IMG/VR virus record: IMGVR_UViG_3300047672_000038
Span: 1 to 31,184 of that record
Source: a virus
Taxonomy: Duplodnaviria > Caudoviricetes
Length of the DNA stretch: 31,184 nt
Reading direction: 5' to 3' (one strand)
The translations under genes were made by a program, and so were the position numbers. This document shows, one piece after another, positions 475-21,770 of this stretch (its first letter is position 1; the number at the start of each line of letters is the position of its first letter). The notes under the pieces were generated by a model that was not told where the DNA came from, ran no database searches, and was given only the letters and a program-made list of their open reading frames with translations.

Positions 475-1919
475 AGGGTCATCGGGTCCACGGTTTTACC
501 TTTGTCACGATGGAATTTGTAGCCGTCGTCGGGAAGCTTCATCGAAGGCGCAGCCGCCACACGGCCCTTCACCATCTTGTCCAGCAATTGCCCGACCAGC
601 CCGAGCGCATCGCCCTGATCGTCGTACTTGGCCGACCACAGTTTCAGGATTTCAGCGAAGAACGCCGCCACCCACGGCGCATTCTTCGGATAGTAAATCC
701 CGTCGAGCGCAAGGCGGCCCTGGATTGACCGTGCCCGAACCGCCTTGTCTCCCCGCGTCGGAAACTGCTCACGCGTGACATACACGCGCCGATCACTCAT
801 GCGCTTCTCAAGGAACGGGCCAACCGATGCCTTGATCTGTCCGGTTTCCTCTGCCCATCCCATCGGGCGATATTTTTCCACCAGATCGCAGAAGGCATCG
901 ATCCAGACATCCGATGTCTTTTGACCGCGCCACACGTCCAGCAGATAAAGATTGTTCATGTGATCGACGCCGATCACGATATGCACCGTGAAATCGCCGC
1001 CCTCATTCGTCACGGCGTAGTCGGACGCGCCATAGCAGCGCATCAGCGTGTGTGACGGCGCAATGTCCAGCGGCTTGAACCATTCTTCCTTGAAGAAGTC
1101 GCCGCTGTCCGGCGTCGGCTCTTGCTGATACAGCGCCGACCACACGCGCGGCGGTGTCGTCGCTTTCAACTCGCGTAATTGTTCGCCGTAGCCGTAGGTA
1201 TCGTCATCCCAAAGAAATTCTCCGGGGTGGCGGCCGAGTTGATCGTCCGCCTTGGCTTCGGCCGGCAGCGAGATCACCGTCCAATCCTGATGATTGAGAC
1301 AGCGGCCCGCCAGATCATCTTCATGCCAACGGGTCTGGATCAGTAGTTGGCGCGCACCAGGTATCAGGCGCGGCCGAAAGTCGAACAGATACCATTCCCA
1401 AAGACGATCTCGCACGTTCTGGCTCTCTGCATCCTCACGGGATCGCAGGGGATCATCGATGACGCCGAACAGTGCCCGAAAGCCTGCGATACCGATCCTT
1501 GCGCCGGCTGCGAGATATTCGCCGCCTTCCAGTGTTGACCAGCGGCCGGCTGCCTGATTGTCGGTATCTGGCCGGATGCCCAAAATTGAGGATTGGTCTG
1601 CAATGATGTTCCGAACACGCCTTCCCCACCTTTCCGCCAACTCCGTAGTGTGGCTTGCGGCAAGAAATTGCGCCTTCGGATGCTGCGCCATTGCATAGGG
1701 CGGAAACAAAACGCTGGCGTAAGTGCTCTTGGCCGAACCGGGCGGCATGAACACGGCGAGCCGGACAATCTCGCCCCGGCACAAGGCTTCAAGCTTTTCG
1801 ATCAGCAGCAGATGGTGGCGGGCGGGAATGTAGCCTTGGCTCTTGCACCATTCCGACATATCGGAACGGACCAGCTTCCGGCGAAGGATTTCGCCGGCAG
1901 CATCTTCCGCCGAGATCAT
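471..1919 (-). CDS. terL: Terminase large subunit
   Basis: 482 aa with Walker A-like MPPGSAKST, Walker B-like GVIDDP, coupling motif IQTRWHEDDL, nuclease-domain ASDYA and C-terminal YDDQGDAL. Confidence 0.95.
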   Translation of the reverse strand: MISAEDAAGEILRRKLVRSDMSEWCKSQGYIPARHHLLLIEKLEALCRGEIVRLAVFMPPGSAKSTYASVLFPPYAMAQHPKAQFLAASHTTELAERWGRRVRNIIADQSSILGIRPDTDNQAAGRWSTLEGGEYLAAGARIGIAGFRALFGVIDDPLRSREDAESQNVRDRLWEWYLFDFRPRLIPGARQLLIQTRWHEDDLAGRCLNHQDWTVISLPAEAKADDQLGRHPGEFLWDDDTYGYGEQLRELKATTPPRVWSALYQQEPTPDSGDFFKEEWFKPLDIAPSHTLMRCYGASDYAVTNEGGDFTVHIVIGVDHMNNLYLLDVWRGQKTSDVWIDAFCDLVEKYRPMGWAEETGQIKASVGPFLEKRMSDRRVYVTREQFPTRGDKAVRARSIQGRLALDGIYYPKNAPWVAAFFAEILKLWSAKYDDQGDALGLVGQLLDKMVKGRVAAAPSMKLPDDGYKFHRDKGKTVDPMTL

Positions 1920-2320
1920 TTGGCTGCTTGCTGCGCCCCTGTTTGTTGCATGACGGCGAAGCGTTCGCTTTCCAGCGACAGATCGATCACGCGCAGGCCG
2001 GCATAGGCGGCTTGCGTTTTCATGTTGCGGGTGCCGCGTCCGCCTTCGAAGGCAATCACCAGATCGGGAAAGCCTTCATCGATCATCTGCTTGTTGCGGA
2101 TCGGCCCTGCGGCCTTGGCCCCGTACTTGGCCCATTCGGCCGGATACTTCTTCACTTCGATGTGCCGGCGATAGGCCCATATTTCGGCCAAGCTATCCGC
2201 GCCCCGCGCGCCGCCGTGGATCACCAGATCGAAGCGATGGATCGCATGCAGCATGTCCAGATAATTTTCCAGCATGCCTTCGTCGGAAAAACTGCGACCG
2301 CCGCAGATAATCACCCTCAT
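1916..2320 (-). CDS. SLOG/YspA-like (DUF2493) protein
   Basis: MRVIICGGRSF...IHGGARGADSLA...AGPIRNKQM...AFEGGRGTRNM are SLOG-family motifs. Start moved to the ATG at 2320, which overlaps the upstream stop. Confidence 0.85.
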   Translation of the reverse strand: MRVIICGGRSFSDEGMLENYLDMLHAIHRFDLVIHGGARGADSLAEIWAYRRHIEVKKYPAEWAKYGAKAAGPIRNKQMIDEGFPDLVIAFEGGRGTRNMKTQAAYAGLRVIDLSLESERFAVMQQTGAQQAAK

Positions 2321-2742
2321 GTGTGCCCCCGGCGCGGATACCAAACCTCATGACGGTGCTTGCCCTTGCCGATCACGCGCCGCCGATAATCGTGCCGAAC
2401 ACACCAACTGATCAGCGCTTCGTTTGGCTCAACAATGACCGGCACCAGATCGTGCCGCCAGATCGCGGCAATCAACCGGGAAAATGCGCCGTGCCCCGGC
2501 TTCATCGCATCGAGCAGCACCAGCCGGATTTTTTTGCCGTCCTGGCTGGCGACGATCTCGCGCCAATCTTCGGGGTTGATGATCACCGACCGCAGGACAA
2601 GGGTAAAACCCTGTTCCACTTCCATCTCGCGCAGATTGGCAGCGGCGGCCATCATGTTTTCGGTTTTCAATACGGGCGCGGACGGGGCCGGGCTGTTCGC
2701 CAGCAGGCCAGCGAGAATGCCGTGCCGGGAAACCTTTCTCAT
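2317..2742 (-). CDS. Hypothetical protein (weak GNAT-like PGHGAF segment)
   Basis: Translationally coupled with both neighbours by 4-nt overlaps. Confidence 0.6.
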   Translation of the reverse strand: MRKVSRHGILAGLLANSPAPSAPVLKTENMMAAAANLREMEVEQGFTLVLRSVIINPEDWREIVASQDGKKIRLVLLDAMKPGHGAFSRLIAAIWRHDLVPVIVEPNEALISWCVRHDYRRRVIGKGKHRHEVWYPRRGHT

Positions 2743-9018: not shown

Positions 9019-9504
9019 TTAGTCCGTTTCAACTCTGACCGCTTCACCGTCGATCACGTTGCCCTGTCCTGCCTTGCGTGCTGCGATATCGTACAACTGT
9101 GCATCGGTTAGCCTGTGCAGCGCGTGTGTGTGATCGTGCTTCACCTCGCGGACTTCCTTCCAATCTTCTGGCGCGACGTTCTTAAGACCAAAGATCGCTG
9201 CCGCTGCCTGCGCGCCTTTCTCTGCGGTTAGCAAGCGACTTTCGAAGGCGCGTTGTCGTCCCATGCTCGCGCGGTTTACCGCGTCTGAAAAGGCGCTGTG
9301 TTCCCTCACCCATCGATATATCGTATCCCTGCCAACTCCGATCTTCCCGGCAAACGCGGCGAGGCTGTAACCCTGTGCCATGTCCTCAATGACCATTGCG
9401 CAGAACTCCGGACGGTAGCCCGAAGGCCTGCCTGTGGTGTAGTTCGGATCACGGTAATGGGCTGGCACTGTCGTTCGTACAAATGGTGCCATGTGTGGTG
9501 TCAT
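9019..9504 (-). CDS. terS: Terminase small subunit
   Basis: GRPSGYRPEFC...GYSLAAFAGKIGVGRDTIYRWVREHSAFSDAV...AAIFGLKN...WKEVREV matches the HTH-type TerS pattern. Confidence 0.8.
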   Translation of the reverse strand: MTPHMAPFVRTTVPAHYRDPNYTTGRPSGYRPEFCAMVIEDMAQGYSLAAFAGKIGVGRDTIYRWVREHSAFSDAVNRASMGRQRAFESRLLTAEKGAQAAAAIFGLKNVAPEDWKEVREVKHDHTHALHRLTDAQLYDIAARKAGQGNVIDGEAVRVETD

Positions 9505-9779
9505 CCCTGTCTATCTGCCGGCATAGCCTGTGGCGCGTCCGGCTGGCCTGCCAATGGGTGCGCGCGGTTAAGCCTGTGATCCCCTTCGAAATTTTCTTTC
9601 GGGGAAACCTGGCTCCCCTGTGACCGGAATTTCGTTGCGCATAGCTGGCCTTGTGCCGCTGTCAGCATCGCTTCATAGGCTTCCCGCTTGCGCCTAGCGC
9701 GGCGCGATGTGTCATGCGCCAGCCGGCCAAAGAACGCAGTCCGGCCGGGCCTGTCCCGCCGCGTCATGGTCCGCGACAT
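9501..9779 (-). CDS. Hypothetical protein upstream of terS
   Basis: ATGA overlap with terS. Low-complexity and Arg-rich, so uncertain. Confidence 0.35.
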   Translation of the reverse strand: MSRTMTRRDRPGRTAFFGRLAHDTSRRARRKREAYEAMLTAAQGQLCATKFRSQGSQVSPKENFEGDHRLNRAHPLAGQPDAPQAMPADRQG

Positions 9780-9806
9780 TTCTTTAACCTTCCTGCATTT
9801 GATGGG

Positions 9807-9837
9807 TTGACTTGCTTGGGCTTAAAGCCCATAGGAT
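9807..9837 (+). promoter_or_regulatory. Promoter with palindromic operator, copy 1
   Basis: TTGACT...TGGGC-TTAAA-GCCCA (9817-9831)-TAGGAT. Confidence 0.7.
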
Positions 9838-9872
9838 TATCATCGGCAAACAGCCGAACAAGGGGAACCACA

Positions 9873-10199
9873 ATGACTGATACTTTTAAGACCAAGCTTG
9901 GCACCACAAGAGCAGGCGAGCGCACGCGCATTTGGATTGAAGGCGCACGTCTGACCGCACACGCTTTCAGCGTTGGCAAGCGCTTCTCTCGCAAGTGGAC
10001 GCCAGCCACGTTGACGCTGGAACTGATCTCCGAAGCGGAATTCGAAAAGCTTTCCGTTGCAGATCGCGGCACGGTTTCCGGCAAGGATGAAAAGCCCATT
10101 ATCGATGTCACCGGCCAAAAGGTTGGTGCGACGTTCGGCGCTGGCACTCACGTTGCGGTCAGCTATGCGCGCGGCGTCATCACCATTCGCCGCGACTAA
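9873..10199 (+). CDS. Hypothetical protein resembling the N-terminal accessory domain of plasmid/ICE C5 methyltransferases
   Basis: AAGGGGAAC SD. TKLGTTRAGERTRIWIEGARL...TVSGKDEKPIIDVTG...VSYARGVITI; the resemblance is recalled, not searched. Confidence 0.75.
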   Translation: MTDTFKTKLGTTRAGERTRIWIEGARLTAHAFSVGKRFSRKWTPATLTLELISEAEFEKLSVADRGTVSGKDEKPIIDVTGQKVGATFGAGTHVAVSYARGVITIRRD

Positions 10200-10207
10200 C
10201 CATCGCG

Positions 10208-10292
10208 ACATCGCTTTAGGCCCGGCAGCGCAAGCTTACCGGGTTTAAGGCAATAGAAGCGCCAGCACATCGCGGCGCAGACCAAGGGGAAC
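10208..10292 (+). repeat. Structured intergenic repeat, copy A
   Basis: ACATCGC...CCCGG-C-AGC-GCAA-GCT-TA-CCGGG-TTT...GAAGCGCCAGCA...AAGGGGAAC. Confidence 0.85.
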
Positions 10293-10296
10293 ACCA

Positions 10297-10629
10297 ATGC
10301 CTAACAAATCTTCACCGCATGGCGGTTTCATTTCCGAAGGCACCGTGTCGCACGGCACGCTTCGCACTCCGGACTTGCTGCGCAGGCTTGCCGATGAATA
10401 TGACCGCGTGCTGCCGTTCAATTCGTTTTCAACCGTCTACGATGCGCGCAACAGTGCAAACGAAATTGATGCCGATCCCGGCCATCCCGGCAACGAACAA
10501 TGTGGTTCCGAGATCGTGCAGGAATTGATTGACGCACTCAACACTGTGGCCGGCCGCGAGGGGCTGTATTTCGGCGCACATCCCGGTGACGGTTCGGACT
10601 TCGGATACTGGAAGGCTGACGACGAATAA
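10297..10629 (+). CDS. Small acidic hypothetical protein
   Basis: AAGGGGAAC SD; GTVSHGTLR...YFGAHPGDGSDFGYW. Confidence 0.8.
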   Translation: MPNKSSPHGGFISEGTVSHGTLRTPDLLRRLADEYDRVLPFNSFSTVYDARNSANEIDADPGHPGNEQCGSEIVQELIDALNTVAGREGLYFGAHPGDGSDFGYWKADDE

Positions 10630-10641
10630 TAATTGCGCACC

Positions 10642-10725
10642 ACATCGCGTTACACCCGGCAGCGAAAGCTTACCGGGTTTGACGCATTAGGAAGCGCCAG
10701 CATGTGCAGCGCTCGCAAGGGGAAC
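10642..10725 (+). repeat. Structured intergenic repeat, copy B
   Basis: ACATCGC...CCCGG-C-AGC-GAAA-GCT-TA-CCGGG-TTT...GAAGCGCCAGCA...AAGGGGAAC. Confidence 0.85.
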
Positions 10726-10730
10726 AGCAA

Positions 10731-11003
10731 ATGCCAATCAATTCCATCTCTGACTTTCGCAAGGCGATGCGCAACGGCCCATATGCTTGGCCGGGTGGCT
10801 ATCCGCTTTATTTCGTCATGGCGGACGGTGAAGCACTCTCATTCCGTGCTGCCAAGGATAACCGCCGCGAGATCATAAGCGCACTGGCCTATCCCGGCAC
10901 GGCTAAGGATTGGCAGCCGATAGCGTTTGAAATAAATTGGGAAGATGCAGACCTATGGTGCGCGCACCGTGCCGAAAAGATTGAAAGCGCTTATTCCGAT
11001 TAA
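10731..11003 (+). CDS. Small hypothetical phage protein
   Basis: AAGGGGAAC SD before ATG 10731; PYAWPGGYPLYF...INWEDADLWC...IESAY. Confidence 0.8.
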   Translation: MPINSISDFRKAMRNGPYAWPGGYPLYFVMADGEALSFRAAKDNRREIISALAYPGTAKDWQPIAFEINWEDADLWCAHRAEKIESAYSD

Positions 11004-11012
11004 TTGCGCTGC

Positions 11013-11082
11013 ACATCGCGTCCTTTACCCGGCTGCGGAAACGCACACCGGGTTTAAGGCGTCAGTAGCAACCAAGGGGAAC
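11013..11082 (+). repeat. Structured intergenic repeat, copy C
   Basis: ACATCGC...CCCGG-C-TGCG-GAAA-CGCA-CA-CCGGG-TTT...AAGGGGAAC. Confidence 0.8.
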
Positions 11083-11086
11083 AGCA

Positions 11087-11380
11087 ATGGCCAAACCGAA
11101 TAAATTGCAGGCAGGCGATACCGTCGCATATGCGGCGAAGTTTCTGCGCAACACTTGCCAGCACACCGGCAGCGCGCCGCAGCGTCGCGGCACGTTCATC
11201 AGCTATTGGCAATCAAATCCGGACTTTGCCCGCGTCAAATGGTCAGATTTCGATTTCGATTATCAGGCCCGGCAGCATGGCGAAGATTACGCGCAAGACG
11301 CGCAAGAGCATGGGCAACTGGTTTTGGCTGTCAACATTGCTAAAGTCGGCTCGCCGCGCTTCGCCTTGAATGATATGTGA
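11087..11380 (+). CDS. Small hypothetical protein (possible SH3/KOW-like)
   Basis: AAGGGGAAC SD; LQAGDTVAY...RRGT...ARVKWSD. Confidence 0.8.
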   Translation: MAKPNKLQAGDTVAYAAKFLRNTCQHTGSAPQRRGTFISYWQSNPDFARVKWSDFDFDYQARQHGEDYAQDAQEHGQLVLAVNIAKVGSPRFALNDM

Positions 11381-11386
11381 GCGATC

Positions 11387-11737
11387 ATGAAAACTTACAA
11401 AACCGAATTCCCGGACTTCCCGGACGTTGATTGGCCGGCCATGCCGGCCGGCTTCGAAGATAGCTCTTGGCACAATGACGCCATGCCAAGCATTGCCAGC
11501 CCGCATTATCAAATCTGGATCGATTACGCTGACGTTGCCTTGCGGGAGTATGGCGACAAATACCCGCGTTTCAATGTGCAGCCTATGCGCAACGGGATCG
11601 AGATCACCGGCAACGGCGGATTGATTACGGACGATTGGAATGCCGTGCTGGCCTTCCTCGCCTGCGACTGTCCCGCCTGCCATCGGCATCGCGACAACGG
11701 ACGCGGCATCTGTTGCGATTGCGGCACGCCAATCTAA
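11387..11737 (+). CDS. Hypothetical protein with C-terminal Cys cluster
   Basis: GFEDSSWHNDAMPS...CDCPACH...CCDCG. Confidence 0.75.
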   Translation: MKTYKTEFPDFPDVDWPAMPAGFEDSSWHNDAMPSIASPHYQIWIDYADVALREYGDKYPRFNVQPMRNGIEITGNGGLITDDWNAVLAFLACDCPACHRHRDNGRGICCDCGTPI

Positions 11738-11795
11738 AACACAGGCTGTGGCCTGTTTTTGAAATCTAAAAAGCAGGCTGTGGCCTGCTTTTTTT
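11731..11795. terminator. Tandemly duplicated, probably bidirectional, intrinsic terminator
   Basis: Two copies of AATCTAAAA-N1-2-CAGGC-TGTG-GCCTG-T-run between convergent genes. Confidence 0.75.
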
Positions 11796-12450
11796 ATGCC
11801 GCGATCCTGCCGCGTGCCGCATTGCCCCATTGGGCTGCAAACGCCAGCGCGAGGCCCGGATACGTCTTAGACCGGAAGGCGTGCCGCTGTGGTCCCGGTG
11901 AAGCGAAATGCACCATTGGCTTGGGCTTGGCATCCTTGGGCAAGCCTAGCGCCTTGCGACAGTCCGGCCACGTTGCATGCGTTGGGATCAACAGCGGCAG
12001 ACCTCGCAACCACAGGCAAGTCGCTTTCGTTTCCGGATCGCCAAACATCCAAGGCTGCACAACCTGGGCCTGGCTTGCCCCAATGATCTCCTTTGCACAG
12101 CCAAGCATGATCGGATTTTCAACCGCCACACGCGGGATATTCGCCAGCCATAGCTTGCGGAAAAATTCCGCGCCTAGTCGCATGTTGCGCCAGCGCTCCG
12201 GATCAGGGCCGTTTTCCTTTTTCGTCCCTAAGTAAAGATGCTTGGCACCGCTGTTGCAGAGGTATTTGCAATCGGGGTGGAAAATCGCCAAATCCCAACC
12301 GCGATCTAGCACCGTCAACACATCGCATTGCAGATGGTGCGGCGAGCCATCGACGGCCGGCACCACATCGCAGGACCAAGCATCATGACCGGCCGCGCGG
12401 AAAGCCTGCCGCACCCGGCCGAAACGCTCGCAACCCACAAGCACCCGCAT
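11794..12450 (-). CDS. Phage DNA cytosine methyltransferase-like protein
   Basis: MRVLVGCE...GHDAWSCD...WDLAIFHPDC (motif IV-like), VENP (motif VI), QPWMFG..ETKATCLW, RSKTYPGLA...QWG. Confidence 0.8.
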   Translation of the reverse strand: MRVLVGCERFGRVRQAFRAAGHDAWSCDVVPAVDGSPHHLQCDVLTVLDRGWDLAIFHPDCKYLCNSGAKHLYLGTKKENGPDPERWRNMRLGAEFFRKLWLANIPRVAVENPIMLGCAKEIIGASQAQVVQPWMFGDPETKATCLWLRGLPLLIPTHATWPDCRKALGLPKDAKPKPMVHFASPGPQRHAFRSKTYPGLALAFAAQWGNAARGRIAA

Positions 12451-12523
12451 TCCCTGCCCTCCTGGGCCTGGGTGACGCTAGGCGTTTTTTATTGGATTTG
12501 GGAGTAATTCTTACGTTTTCCAC

Positions 12524-12554
12524 TTGACCCTATTGGGCTTTAAGCCCATAACAG
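12524..12554 (+). promoter_or_regulatory. Promoter with palindromic operator, copy 2
   Basis: TTGACC...TGGGC-TTTAA-GCCCA (12534-12548)-TAACAG. Confidence 0.7.
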
Positions 12555-12587
12555 GCAGGCGCAATCGAGCGCAATCAAGGGGAACCG

Positions 12588-12851
12588 ATGTTTGATCATA
12601 ACCAGATGCGAGAGTTAGCCGCCCTTAAGGCGGATCGCTACCAGCACAACGGCGGTGGCGGTGGCTTTGCCGTGCGCAACACGGCCAAGGCCTATTACGA
12701 AGCGCGCGGCTTTCAAAACCGTTTCGCTGAAATGCTGCACTTTGCCCGGCAATCGTTTGCCGATGTGGCAAGGGGCGAGCAGAGCAATTTTCATCTTGCG
12801 TGCTTGTGCGCTCGCGAGGGGATCGCGGCCGATGAAGCAATCCCGTTCTAG
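12588..12851 (+). CDS. Hypothetical protein
   Basis: AAGGGGAAC SD at 12577. Confidence 0.7.
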   Translation: MFDHNQMRELAALKADRYQHNGGGGGFAVRNTAKAYYEARGFQNRFAEMLHFARQSFADVARGEQSNFHLACLCAREGIAADEAIPF

Positions 12852-12999
12852 CCAAACCGAAATGCCCGGCACTTCGCCGCGCATTGCCGAAACCCTGCAA
12901 CGTCGCGCAAGCGCGCCGTTACTTTCCACCAAACCGCAACAGCCAATTGAGCACGGGCTTTTTGGCGATCAACACAACCAAGGGGAACTATTCAAATGA
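12832..12999 (+). CDS. Small hypothetical protein (start uncertain: 12832 or 12862)
   Basis: Fills the gap, with an ATGA overlap into the next gene; LQRRASAPL...GLFGDQ...GELF. Confidence 0.4.
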   Translation: MKQSRSSQTEMPGTSPRIAETLQRRASAPLLSTKPQQPIEHGLFGDQHNQGELFK

Positions 13000-13619
13000 A
13001 ACTTCTGACCAACCACACCACACCGGAAACCGCTTTCGTTGTCGCAGATTATCCTTATGGCTTCCGGCTGCGCTGCCAAATTCGCTACTGGCTGGAATTC
13101 AACCCGAAGCACGGTTTCCGTTTCATGTCGCAGACCACCAACCCGAAGCGCCCCGGCCAAGTCTGGAACAAGCCCAAGGCGTCAACCTACTGCAAGTTTG
13201 GTATGGCGATGTACCTTGACGAAAACGAGCACGTTCAATGGGCGGGCTTGTCGGAATACAGCGACGCGGCGCAGGCGCAGAAATTTCAGGAAACCTACGG
13301 CGCAGCCGTGCCAGAAGCCGGCCGGGACATTCTCAACAAGTGGGTAGCCGCCAAGGTCGCTTACGAAGCCAACCGGGAGGAAGGCGACGCGCTGCACGTT
13401 GGCCTGCCGGAAGCACGCGCCGCAATCCTTGACGTTGCCAAGGCCGTCACGCGGGCCGAAAAGCTCGCGGCGATCTGGAAGGACACTCACGCGGATTTCA
13501 AGGGCCATCTGGAAGGCCAGCGGTCGATCATGGTCTATCGGAACGGCACTTGCCTTGTCTTGCTCAATGATCTGACAGATGCGGAGATCGCAGACAAGCT
13601 GCCAGCCCGCTACAAGTGA
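12996..13619 (+). CDS. Hypothetical phage protein
   Basis: AAGGGGAAC SD; DYPYGFRLRCQIRYWLE...QTTNPK...WNKPKASTY. Confidence 0.8.
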   Translation: MKLLTNHTTPETAFVVADYPYGFRLRCQIRYWLEFNPKHGFRFMSQTTNPKRPGQVWNKPKASTYCKFGMAMYLDENEHVQWAGLSEYSDAAQAQKFQETYGAAVPEAGRDILNKWVAAKVAYEANREEGDALHVGLPEARAAILDVAKAVTRAEKLAAIWKDTHADFKGHLEGQRSIMVYRNGTCLVLLNDLTDAEIADKLPARYK

Positions 13620-13637
13620 CCGCCTGACCCAACCAAC

Positions 13638-13669
13638 AAAGGCCCGCCCCGCGCGGGCCTTTTTCTTTT
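13638..13669 (+). terminator. Intrinsic terminator
   Basis: AAAGGCCCGC-loop-GCGGGCCTTT followed by a T-rich tract. Confidence 0.8.
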
Positions 13670-13672
13670 CCG

Positions 13673-13702
13673 TTGACGCTATGGGCTTTATGCCCATATG
13701 AT
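13673..13702 (+). promoter_or_regulatory. Promoter with palindromic operator, copy 3
   Basis: TTGACG...ATGGGC-TTTAT-GCCCAT (13681-13697), with -10 TATGAT. Confidence 0.75.
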
Positions 13703-13723
13703 CTACCATCCAAAGGGGAACCC

Positions 13724-14392
13724 ATGAAACCGATCATTTCCTATCGGCGCATATCGAAGGAAGGCAAGAAGGGCCTTGCCGGCCTTGGGCTGGAAGCACA
13801 GGACAATGCCAACCGATTTTTTGCACCGGCACACGGTTTCGAAATCGCAGGCGAATACCTGGAAATAGAAACCGGCAAAGGTTTCGATGCACTGGACAAG
13901 CGTCCGCAACTGGCCGCAGCGCTCGCACATGCGCAGCAACTCAATTGCCCCGTGCTTGTCGCCAAGCTGGACCGGCTGTCGCGCAACGTCGCATTCATTG
14001 CCGGCCTGATGGAAAAGCGCGTGCCGTTCATCGTCGCCGCGCTTGGCATGGACGTTCCGCCGTTCATGCTGCACATCTACGCCGCGTTCGCTGAAAAGGA
14101 ACGGCAGGACATTTCGGACCGCACCAAAGCCGCGCTAGCCGTCGCCAAGGCGCGCGGCATTCGGCTAGGCAACCCGCAAGAGGTACAGGCCGCAGAGATC
14201 GCCGCGCGGGCCTTTGCCGAAACCCTGCGCCCTGTCGTGACACCCGTCCTTAACCTGTCGTCGCGGCGCATTGCGTCCTATCTCAATGCGCAAGGCGTAA
14301 AAACTGCGGAAGGCAAGGCTTGGCAGTCCACGCAAGTCATCCGCCTGATTAACCGTCTAACCAAAGGGGCACGCGATGCCGTCGAAGCGTAA
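13724..14392 (+). CDS. Serine recombinase (resolvase/invertase family)
   Basis: N-terminal YRRIS catalytic motif, [25 protein letters not shown] and a C-terminal DNA-binding segment; AAGGGGAAC SD. Confidence 0.9.
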
Positions 14393-14606
14393 GGCCGAAG
14401 CACATACCTGGATGACCGGCGATGCGTTCGCCGCGTGTCTCGCCAAGCTGGAAATCCACCCGGTTGATTTTGCCGAAGTGATTGCGTTCAACGAGCGCAC
14501 GGTGCGCAAGTGGATTGACGGCACGCTGGACGTTCCGCGATGGGCTGCGCAGCTAGTTAACCTGATGATCAAGACCAACACCAAACCGGAGAACTTGAAG
14601 CCATGA
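14376..14606 (+). CDS. Small HTH transcriptional regulator (Aca-like architecture)
   Basis: [37 protein letters not shown]...VPRWAAQLV, an XRE-like HTH. Confidence 0.7.
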
Positions 14607-14824
14607 GCCGAAAGAAAGAAACGCCAAAGCCGATGTTCGCCTTGCGCGCTGATTTTGCCGCTTCGCTGGAAAATGTATGCAACGAATGCGTGATGATGTT
14701 GCAGATGGTTGATAGCCTGATCCAGCTAGGCAACCTGACGCCAAACCTTAAGGCGATGTTGATCGAACGGCGCGGCAAGATGCGCGCGGCGCTGATGTCG
14801 GAGAATGATGATGATGAAGGCTAG
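14603..14824 (+). CDS. Hypothetical protein
   Basis: ATGA overlap with the HTH gene. Confidence 0.55.
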   Translation: MSRKKETPKPMFALRADFAASLENVCNECVMMLQMVDSLIQLGNLTPNLKAMLIERRGKMRAALMSENDDDEG

Positions 14825-15047
14825 CAACCTGAAATCATCCGGCCTAAGCGTGCTGACATCCGAAGCGGTTGACGCGGATGGGCTGCACTGTTCCGAATGC
14901 GGCGACACCGGCCCCGGCGACAAGCTTTTGATCTTCTGCACGCGGATCGGCACGCGCGTCCGGATGCACGGCGGACGGTTTTGCAGCAAGGTCTGCCATG
15001 ACCGCTACCACGGCCTAGCGCCGCAGACACCAAGGGGAACGCTATGA
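14805..15047 (+). CDS. Small zinc-finger protein
   Basis: CSEC...FCSKVCH; start uncertain among tandem ATGs. Confidence 0.55.
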   Translation: MMMMKASNLKSSGLSVLTSEAVDADGLHCSECGDTGPGDKLLIFCTRIGTRVRMHGGRFCSKVCHDRYHGLAPQTPRGTL

Positions 15048-15256
15048 ACAAACATCACAACGATCTGTTGCTGGCACTTGCGGCTTACATGGTTGCCGTT
15101 GCCGAACATGGCCGGACCGATGCCGCCGACAAGGCAGCGGATCAACGCTTCATCCTCGCAACGCAAGCGCTCGCGGACGATCAACGGGAGTTTTGCCGGC
15201 GAATGGAGATCGGCAAAAGCCTGCGCGTCGTCAAGGATACCCACATCGCGATCTAA
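15044..15256 (+). CDS. Hypothetical protein
   Basis: AAGGGGAAC SD at 15032. Confidence 0.65.
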   Translation: MNKHHNDLLLALAAYMVAVAEHGRTDAADKAADQRFILATQALADDQREFCRRMEIGKSLRVVKDTHIAI

Positions 15257-15280
15257 GGCCCGCACGCTGCCTGAAATGTC

Positions 15281-15308
15281 AAAGGCCCGGATTGCTCCGG
15301 GCCTTTTT
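15281..15308 (+). terminator. Intrinsic terminator
   Basis: AAAGGCCCGGA-TTGC-TCCGGGCCTTTTT. Confidence 0.85.
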
Positions 15309-15411
15309 CAATCGTCCTGATGTGCGCCGCCGATGTTTTAAGGGGAACCAAAAAACTTTGGTTTCGCAGATCGAGATGATACCTGGAATATGGTGCCAAT
15401 CGCCCCTAGCG

Positions 15412-15927
15412 TCAACCGGCTTTCAATCGATCAAAGAAACCGCCGAGCCTGTGCCCGGCATCTGACAGAATTTCGCCGGCTCGCTGTCGCGCCCGGTATG
15501 GCGAGCGAAACCCGAGCGTTTCGCCTGTCTCTTGCAGCGCCCGGCCAAAGCACGCGATCTGCGTTGCGACATAGGACGGGCGATGCCCTATCGCATCCTG
15601 CGCCGCGTAATAGGTCCGCTTGTGGTCTAATTGCGCCTCCGTCCGGGCCAGCCCCGACATCTGCGACGGATCGAACGAATAAATCCGGTTCAGGTCTACC
15701 GATCCCAAAGGCCCCTGCAAGCCGCCAGCGACCCAATGCAGCGCGTAGCGCCGCAAGGCCGAGTATTCACCGGGAGTAATTATCCGGCGCACCAGCGACC
15801 GCCCTAGCGCGTCGTCAAGCATGGTGACGCGGCGCGCGGATCGGCCGCGCCCCGCCACGTTGAAAAACTCGCCGGCTTTGGAAAGTCGTTCCGCTGTTGG
15901 TCCCGCTTCATCGATGGGGACTTGCAT
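15412..15927 (-). CDS. Putative late-gene regulator (DUF6456-like; occupies the antiterminator position)
   Basis: GGAGG SD before ATG 15927. Last gene of the early leftward operon, with a C-terminal HTH-like segment. Confidence 0.55.
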   Translation of the reverse strand: MQVPIDEAGPTAERLSKAGEFFNVAGRGRSARRVTMLDDALGRSLVRRIITPGEYSALRRYALHWVAGGLQGPLGSVDLNRIYSFDPSQMSGLARTEAQLDHKRTYYAAQDAIGHRPSYVATQIACFGRALQETGETLGFRSPYRARQRAGEILSDAGHRLGGFFDRLKAG

Positions 15928-21371: not shown

Positions 21372-21770
21372 GTGGTTAAAAAGGTCGAAGGACTAGAAGC
21401 TTACGGCTTCGACATCAAAAAATACCAGCAACGCTTGAAGCTGATGCGCCAGATTGTCAGCGGAGAAAACCAGCAGGACTTTGCTGCGCGCATCGGCGTC
21501 GATCAAAAGCGGTGGAATAATTATGAACAGGGATATCCGATCCCGCGCCACGTCGCGATGATGCTGATAAGCAAGCTGGACGGCATGTCTGTCGAGTGGC
21601 TTTGGTTTGGCAAGGAAGGCAACCTGTCCGCCGACTATCGCGACCGCATCCGAACCGCCGAGACGCTGCAAAACAGGCTGGAAGCAAAGATAAACGGCGC
21701 AGCAAAAGCGCTGCCGCGCGGCAAATCGAAAGCGAAGAAGATAGTTAAAAAACGCAAGAAGCGATCCTAG
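21372..21770 (+). CDS. CI-like XRE-family repressor (no S24 peptidase domain)
   Basis: QQDFAARIGVDQKRWNNYEQG...SVEWLWFG; divergent from the cro-like gene. Confidence 0.8.
   Translation: MVKKVEGLEAYGFDIKKYQQRLKLMRQIVSGENQQDFAARIGVDQKRWNNYEQGYPIPRHVAMMLISKLDGMSVEWLWFGKEGNLSADYRDRIRTAETLQNRLEAKINGAAKALPRGKSKAKKIVKKRKKRS

Follow-up and report, generated by a model that had tools for sequence, protein, structure and literature searches.

The window analysed here is an entire virus record of 31,184 nt (IMG/VR record IMGVR_UViG_3300047672_000038), predicted to be a fragment of a temperate tailed phage, in which a plus-strand block of small genes (9800-15310) carries palindromes inside three sigma-70-type promoters (P1 to P3). 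By our estimate there is a probability of roughly three in four that a dimer of a 76-aa helix-turn-helix (HTH) protein, encoded in the third operon behind a serine recombinase gene, binds these palindromes and represses all three promoters of a variable cargo region, whose likely counter-defence or host-adjusting products would be made in a short burst upon entry. Under this scheme P1 to P3 would fire when the phage DNA enters a repressor-free cell; the HTH protein would then accumulate, its dimer would occupy the 17-bp operators through two arginines (R41 and R44) that read the GG at -5/-6, as in Aca1, and all three promoters would be switched off, that of its own operon included. RNA hairpins between the genes would act at the RNA level, independently of the HTH protein.

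Three promoters with a common palindrome

The exact palindrome TGGGC-N5-GCCCA occurs three times in the 31,184 nt (9817, 12534 and 13682), compared to a mean of 0.06 and a maximum of 1 in 100 dinucleotide shuffles, and every copy is preceded by TTGAC (9807, 12524 and 13673; three of 39 TTGAC boxes on the plus strand and none of 27 on the minus strand). This bears out the original prediction of three TTGAC-plus-palindrome promoters, as well as its remark that the palindrome was not noticed elsewhere: a search with the consensus TGGGCTTNANGCCCA at up to two mismatches added a sole site at 13786, within the recombinase gene. A better description of the symmetric site takes in 17 bp, (T/A)TGGGCTTNANGCCCAT. 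P1 (9807..9837, plus strand) comprises the -35 box TTGACT at 9807-9812, the 17-bp operator at 9816-9832 and a likely -10 box TAGGAT at 9832-9837 (or CATAGG at 17 bp). P2 (12524..12554, plus strand) has TTGACC, the operator at 12533-12549 and either CATAAC (17 bp) or TAACAG (19 bp) as -10 box, and P3 (13673..13702, plus strand) has TTGACG, the operator at 13681-13697 and TATGAT (18 bp). Downstream of each promoter lies a AAGGGGAA ribosome-binding site. P3 alone scored in the program scan for promoters and terminators.

Measured to the TA of the -10 box the spacers are 19, 19 and 18 bp, as had been read before, and their length had been taken as a sign of MerR-like geometry or of a misassigned -10 box. 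Among 27 homologous promoters of related loci the spacer is 17 bp in 8, 18 bp in 17 and 19 bp in 2, so MerR geometry is unnecessary. In all three window operators the outer TA of the family consensus is replaced by (A/T)T in the left half and by AT in the right half, with GG and CC kept, and this swap shifts the TA of the -10 box by one base, which accounts for the 19/19/18 spacers. A 17-bp reading of P1 and P2 with C at -12 is possible; according to PMC8407463, 17 bp is the commonest spacer and T at -7 is absent from most alphaproteobacterial promoters. A promoter and regulator of MerR type was rejected as a candidate, given that the spacers are mostly 17-18 bp, that the fold of the HTH protein is XRE-like and that only one of 51 members of its family weakly matches PF00376.

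Short hairpins were seen directly behind P1 (9843-9857) and P2 (12559-12572) in the predicted 5’ untranslated region, the place of the Aca1 and Aca2 RNA motifs; of the two, only that of P1 folds better than shuffles (z -2.72). Several promoters of the related locus L123 have an extra TAGGGC half-site just upstream of the -35 box (7620-7590, 6480-6450 and others, minus strand), and at this place window P1 has ATGGG (9800-9806). The extra half-site could be a second binding position.

Co-occurrence of the operator and the HTH gene in related loci

The HTH gene (14376..14606, plus strand) is not stand-alone, as first described, but overlaps the end of the serine recombinase gene (13724..14392, plus strand), and the pair is conserved. 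A conserved 171-aa open reading frame (ORF) on the right flank of the block (15412..15927, minus strand), which had no family match in the PHROG search, served as synteny anchor. All eight viral loci found via this ORF (seven distinct in the interval) have the recombinase and HTH genes between it and the small terminase gene, what lies upstream of the pair varies, and the recombinase-HTH promoter of these relatives carries the homologous operator TAGG-N9-CCTA, with six promoter-like copies in L123. In total 27 distinct promoters were collected from 20 loci, out of 30 HTH-bearing loci. The search pattern forced GG and CCTA and left the mirrored T (-8) and A (-7) free; symmetry was nevertheless seen at these positions, where 21 of the 27 promoters have the T and 23 have the A.

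For a wider comparison we used 160 recombinase loci, the best 80 from genomes and the best 80 viral ones among the matches listed. A promoter-linked GG-N9-CC within 600 nt upstream was present at 15 of 22 loci with an adjacent HTH gene (window included) versus 3 of 124 loci without one, and NAGG-N9-CCTA within 1.5 kb upstream at 15 of 20 loci with recombinase and HTH versus 6 of 109 with the recombinase only (dereplicated, window excluded). A control independent of the recombinase came from HTH genes with no recombinase in their 3.2-kb locus: 8 of 18 carry NAGG-N9-CCTA within 1.5 kb upstream, compared to 1.44 expected from shuffles, and in four of these (L324, L325, L326 and L332) the site lies directly behind TTGAC, in L324 only 66 nt upstream of the HTH gene. 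A loose match in L333 (-35 box TTGCTG, 4 of 6 pairs) was left out of the counts.

In a quick tree of 85 of 150 recombinases, the 23 HTH-linked ones fall within one clade of 29 (SH-aLRT 94), which contains two nested losses of the HTH gene, L215/L223 and L220/L225. In L215 and L220, the members for which upstream sequence was available, the locus and a close recombinase are retained, and both the HTH gene and the GG-N9-CC operator are absent; L212 and L216, whose loci carry the operator, have recombinases that share 73-74% identity with that of L215. As judged from these comparisons the operator tracks the HTH gene and not the recombinase. They support the proposed reading of the palindrome as an operator whose most likely binder is the 14376 HTH protein, and autorepression of all three operons by this protein appears likely.

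The HTH family profile also matched 17 of 251 genomes of Bradyrhizobium, the genus of L132. Other searches gave little: single-protein and profile scans for the HTH returned two loci each, its broad alignment offered no stretch usable for a locus scan, and tblastn of the HTH against cultured phages found none. The strict window motif was present in 0 viral contigs, a loose scan of viral contigs for promoter plus palindrome yielded 118 loci, of which almost all match by chance within coding sequence and none has a multi-copy cassette, and blastn of the region against cultured phages gave two trivial matches.

Resemblance of the HTH protein to Aca1

The 76-aa protein is an XRE/Aca-type HTH and the likely repressor of P1 to P3. 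Its AlphaFold2 model has four helices (pLDDT 83), and the top fold matches are Aca2 (Z 9.5, rmsd 2.8, 63 aligned residues), HigA2 (Z 9.2), MqsA (8.6), Aca10 (8.2) and Aca1 (8.1), the structural identity to Aca1 being 13-16%. R41 and R44 are at least 90% conserved across 51 family members, and the family profile aligns them to R44 and R47 of Aca1 (E 0.013). In the account given in PMC8633003, R47 and R44 of Aca1 read the two G of its inverted repeat IR2, TAGGCA-N5-TGCCTA. GG is present at -6/-5 in all three window sites, and the operator of the related locus L127, TAGGCA-N5-TGCCTA, is identical to IR2 in the same frame. In L239, whose HTH protein has R41 changed to A, the right half-site is altered. 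The protein therefore combines the features seen in Aca1, an R-x-x-R recognition helix and GG half-sites at the Aca1 spacing, with those of the Aca class, a small HTH in the regulated operon and an inverted repeat overlapping the -35 and -10 boxes of its own promoter, and we infer that it works like Aca1 through R41 and R44.

It does not belong to any of the named Aca families. Membership of the Aca1 family was rejected for want of significant sequence homology (E 0.013), and that of the Aca2 family (PF08965) because the window HTH gave no Pfam match, only one of 51 relatives matched weakly (E 8.5e-4), and the protein has 76 aa compared to about 120 aa with a C-terminal dimerisation domain. 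The suggested comparison with Aca families gave fold matches to Aca2, Aca10 and Aca1 and did not place the protein in the Aca1 or Aca2 family. Helix 2 begins with S/N-Q-x in the family (S31-Q32 in Aca1), but with HPV (residues 29-31) in the window HTH and its two closest homologues. This change may go with the altered outer operator bases.

Candidate counter-defence cargo

The same site holds ArdC in the relatives L123, L226, L215, L301 and L313 and LPD29 in L218; the LPD29 domain is also reported from aca4 operons in PMC13551039. With anti-restriction genes at this spot in relatives, the small genes of the window become candidate counter-defence genes. The original prediction had called them anti-defence candidates. 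ArdC and LPD29 in relatives, and homologues of two of the genes in phage terminal regions, speak for this, while no anti-CRISPR (Acr) match was found, so that support for an early, counter-defence character of the locus is indirect. In one viral group (L280-L286) the region upstream of the recombinase contains ArdC, repeated ACCAACCAAGGACC leaders and a more distant HTH before a related recombinase.

Counter-evidence and alternative explanations

A number of observations tell against this picture. Within 1.5 kb, ten of the 18 HTH-only loci lack an operator, two of the eight positives have identical HTHs, and the proportion of 15 in 20 is neither independent nor free of circularity, because these loci come from one clade, which also supplied the pattern. 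With the HTH model, Foldseek returned nothing at E ≤ 0.001; Z-scores of 8-9 may stem from an arrangement that is common among small helical domains; and the sequence likeness to Aca1 is weak (profile versus PDB, E 0.013), behind or level with that to unrelated XRE proteins. Covariation between residues and bases is mixed, since the loci L222 and L291, whose HTHs have R41 changed to T, keep GG. The cassettes of a sister lineage (L215, L301 and L313) are of the same type, occupy the same locus and contain ArdC and the hairpin, but share a different palindrome, TCCAA-N5-TTGGA, and lack an adjacent HTH gene. Searches of Pfam, PHROGs, NCBIfam and PADLOC (the last with 13 window proteins, none of which matched) linked the window cargo to no Acr or defence family, no search having been aimed at Acr families, and in other relatives this interval contains defence-type genes, namely AbiTii (L128), a KAP NTPase/PDC-S20 (L130) and IrrE-like plus DUF4411 genes (L125/L126).

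With both kinds of gene in the interval, the slot takes defence as well as anti-defence cargo. The strongest alternative, which we consider possible yet rather unlikely, accepts the circuit as described and sees in the cargo a lysogen ‘moron’ or superinfection-defence set, expressed at a low constitutive level and not in an early counter-defence burst. Besides the defence-type genes just named, the integrase and the cI-like gene of the phage would suit such a set, but at the AbiTii, KAP and IrrE loci the operator was found at the recombinase-HTH promoter only, and the operator-controlled cargo of other relatives includes ArdC and LPD29. The homologues of genes 10731 and 11387 in terminal regions of Caulobacter and Rhodobacter phages, and the lack of PADLOC matches among the 13 window proteins, also argue for the early burst.

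In the sister lineage TCCAA-N5-TTGGA stands at up to four promoters (L215 4648-7810, L313 1900-5800, L301 about 2170 (hairpin orientation)), the place of the HTH gene behind the recombinase being taken in L301 and L313 by a small hydrophobic ORF. Since a palindrome is shared there with no HTH gene beside it, a regulator acting from elsewhere exists at least in this lineage, and this keeps alive the idea that such a regulator also binds the window palindromes: the cI-like protein (21372-21770), one of the other HTHs encoded outside the block (25850 and 26118), the AbrB-fold product of gene 9873, whose predicted fold is common among DNA-binding proteins, or a host factor. We regard this as improbable. 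No operator copy was found near the cI-like gene or, the one two-mismatch site aside, elsewhere in the window, gene 9873 has no homologue in the searched recombinase loci, and the operator precedes HTH genes in other contexts too, as in L324. The cI-like repressor was accordingly discarded as binder, there being no operator copy in the region before its gene. An A2-type HTH was not found in five HTH-less contigs, all of which are fragments.

Very improbable, finally, is a recombinase that binds the palindromes itself, as an autoregulatory resolvase or at recombination sites excising promoter-bounded cassettes: it is the first gene behind P3, accompanies the HTH gene in all eight loci found via the right-flank ORF, has invariant catalytic-motif residues and in L215, L301 and L313 is the sole recognised DNA-binding protein next to the repeated palindrome, but the operator also lies upstream of recombinase-free HTH genes (8 of 18) and is rare with the recombinase alone (6 of 109), near-equal recombinases accompany different palindromes, the last recombinase helix varies (QSRN, QSAQ, RASN) among loci sharing the operator, and the operator, which has a single base at its centre in contrast to the central dinucleotide in crossover sites of serine recombinases, is improbable as a target of this enzyme. 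Repression by the HTH protein thus remains the reading that we prefer.

A repeated RNA hairpin between the genes of operon 1

Three copies of an RNA hairpin of about 45 nt lie in operon 1, each between a stop codon and the next ribosome-binding site, at 10204..10270 (GCAA loop, z -3.75), 10638..10705 (GAAA loop, z -3.13) and 11009..11079 (GAAA loop, z -2.11), all on the plus strand. A model built from eight copies gave 25 matches in 89 mostly viral sources, none in the 80 genome-derived recombinase loci and nothing significant in three cultured-phage regions. Over 24 distinct rows 93.5% of cells pair, with slid controls at 54.6% or below, and 14 of 16 pairs change on both sides, figures that lean high because the alignment was fitted to the model. 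GNRA or UNCG loops, present in 39 of 50 distinct copies as counted by a rough script, together with G-U pairs point to an RNA on the coding strand. Rfam cmscan of 9500-15500 (E ≤ 1) gave six weak matches below the gathering cutoff, none of them on the three hairpins. By these alignments, then, the hairpin is a covarying RNA element with no Rfam match.

The hairpins had also been proposed as a second regulatory layer bound by the HTH protein. A pattern scan returned 24 hairpin loci, several of them already among the earlier loci, with recombinase and HTH in ten, the recombinase only in two and neither in twelve, as far as the fetched DNA reaches (some loci being truncated). The 14 loci with no HTH in the fetched DNA, two of which have the same locus layout, argue that the hairpin is independent of the HTH, and binding by this protein is probably not its role; the proposal is disfavoured. 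A tentative suggestion, to which we give somewhat less than an even chance, is that the hairpins process or stabilise the polycistronic mRNA and provide each gene with a protected 5’ end, in the manner of an RNase III-type site. RNase III processing hairpins are found in the T7 early region, and T4-like phages have repeated early cassettes. The likeness to these would lie in structured elements that recur among the small early genes of one polycistronic unit; the present hairpin is a putative cleavage site and has no Rfam counterpart.

A single contig from another soil run, at 85% likeness, matches 10236-10630 and 11384-12118 of the window with about 317 nt between the two parts compared to about 750 nt, the joints being at the hairpin and at the ribosome-binding site. 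This fits gene turnover at the hairpin repeats, which may be points where cargo is swapped by homologous recombination; the Rad52-type recombinase of the phage would be a candidate for this activity.

Gene content of the block and its surroundings

The phage genes recognised by PHROGs and Pfam include large and small terminase subunits, a Rad52-type recombinase, a cI-like repressor, an excisionase, a tyrosine integrase and an endolysin, and the host is probably alphaproteobacterial. A YAcAr/SLOG-family gene (1916-2344, minus strand; PF10686, E 1e-18) directly precedes that of the large terminase subunit. One soil metagenome run contains 99% of the sequence words of the region and is possibly where it comes from. 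A relative about 90% identical is present in run X4, and no RNA dataset is among the listed holders of the region. The block sits between two minus-strand genes, the right-flank ORF and, on the left, the small terminase subunit (9019..9504; phrog_309, E 1.2e-20). It contains 11 small ORFs with no trustworthy family name (5 + 3 + 3), a methyltransferase gene on the opposite strand, the serine recombinase and the HTH, in line with the gene count given at the outset, and each of the three operons is closed by a terminator-like hairpin.

Operon 1 starts with a 108-aa ORF (9873..10199) predicted to fold into a tandem SymE/AbrB-like barrel (TM 0.76-0.85 for the predicted model) that resembles the N-terminal domain of plasmid Dcm methylases (tblastn E 2e-3, weak); a search for longer homologues found none at E ≤ 0.001. 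It is followed by ORFs of 110 aa (10297..10629; phrog_29605, seven phage records), 90 aa (10731..11003), 97 aa (11087..11380, an ORF call with no family match) and 116 aa (11387..11737), all on the plus strand. Homologues of gene 10731 occur in 53 phage records, among them the terminal repeats of Caulobacter jumbo phages, and its PHROG label ‘DNA ligase’ appears implausible as the protein has only 90 aa; those of gene 11387 occur in 26 records, for the most part close to the ends of Rhodobacter phage genomes. A terminator-like double hairpin (11742..11787, plus strand), seen in the hairpin and terminator scans, closes the operon. Between operons 1 and 2 lies the DNA methyltransferase-family gene (11794..12450, minus strand, 218 aa; phrog_757, E 2.9e-45; no Pfam match), which has no operator copy of its own. 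This methyltransferase is stand-alone and possibly serves self-protection from restriction.

Operon 2 comprises an 87-aa ORF (12588..12851) with tblastn matches in five recombinase loci and also in L299 and L313, a 45-55-aa ORF (12832..12999) and a 207-aa ORF (12996..13619), all on the plus strand. The second has a similar ORF in L215 (5343-5513, ending QGEMF), and its own end, QGELFK, presumably resembles a beta-clamp-binding motif. The third belongs to a large unnamed family of 1550 homologues, most of about 148 aa and covering the N-terminal part only; its AlphaFold model is confident (pLDDT 95.5) and had no Foldseek match in PDB or BFVD, and tblastn against cultured phages found none. Genes 12588 and 12996 recur in related cassettes. 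An intrinsic terminator-like site from the terminator scan (13638..13662, plus strand) closes operon 2 directly before P3.

In operon 3 the 222-aa serine recombinase has a resolvase N-terminal domain (PF00239, E 2.5e-17) and a short Recombinase domain. The catalytic domain shows the serine nucleophile motif and the R-x-x-R of serine recombinases, the residues R9, S11, R84 and R87 are invariant in nine of nine aligned relatives, and a Gin-type PDB match was obtained at E 1e-6. General scans, none aimed at such sites, revealed no res, att or gix site. The recombinase is intact and constant at a hypervariable site. It is conceivable, if highly speculative, that the recombinase-HTH pair forms the fixed core of an integron-like gene-capture platform of soil alphaproteobacterial phages, in which the recombinase would insert and remove hairpin- or promoter-bounded cassettes, the HTH would confine expression to entry, and the slot would be loaded with anti-defence or defence genes. 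Three small ORFs (73, 79 and 70 aa; 14603..15256, plus strand) follow the HTH gene, the first with a homologue in L121 and the second with homologues in L212 and L217, and a hairpin with a T-run (15284..15308, plus strand), read from the sequence and absent from the terminator scan listing, ends the operon.

Relation to known regulons

Among the closest known systems is the acrIF1-aca1 operon of Pseudomonas phage JBD30 as presented in PMC8633003, which likewise has a small HTH at the operon end, a promoter with an odd-centred inverted repeat of 17 bp whose outer half-sites are TAGGC, and an R-x-x-R recognition helix (R44/R47) in a protein of similar fold (Z 8.1). The window system differs in its distance from Aca1 (profile E 0.013, 13-16% structural identity), its (A/T)TGGGC outer operator bases, the absence of any acr gene found, the coupling of the HTH to a serine recombinase and the probably alphaproteobacterial host. 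Multi-operon regulons of Aca1, Aca2, Aca11 and Aca14, as outlined in PMC13551039 and PMC12658196, share with it one regulator for several neighbouring operons with a common promoter repeat, small genes that are mostly unknown, cargo of the LPD29 type and intergenic RNA motifs; those motifs, however, are described as about 20 nt long, directly after the transcription start site and bound by Aca1 or Aca2, whereas the present hairpin has about 45 nt, follows stop codons and also occurs where no HTH is found. The establishment-gene regulon of plasmid p576, in the description of PMC6294495, is similar in that one autoregulated repressor, Reg576, shuts several promoters, including that of ardC, after DNA entry. 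It differs in being a ribbon-helix-helix protein of a Bacillus conjugative plasmid with a direct heptamer operator, compared to an XRE-type HTH in a phage.

The logic of the proposed circuit is therefore already published, as far as these accounts of multi-operon Aca control (PMC13551039, PMC12658196) and of Reg576 (PMC6294495) go. The words recombinase, ArdC, Alphaproteobacteria and Bradyrhizob- are absent from the main text of PMC13551039, supplements aside; the literature searched gave no account of the HTH family, of its recombinase partner or of the hairpin, and the supplements of that paper (motifs, protein clusters) could include them. If the HTH protein represses P1 to P3 as proposed, Aca-type control would reach into a further lineage of phages, one whose regulators have family members in Bradyrhizobium genomes as well. 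Two sequence markers, the operator and the hairpin, would then point to small unknown genes in the company of ArdC and LPD29, and the genes so marked would form a short list of counter-defence candidates, among them the family of 1550 members whose confident model has no fold match. How specificity changes in small phage repressors could be tested on the natural operator variants TAGG, ATGG and TCCAA, and the hairpin is a phage RNA element that is directly open to testing.

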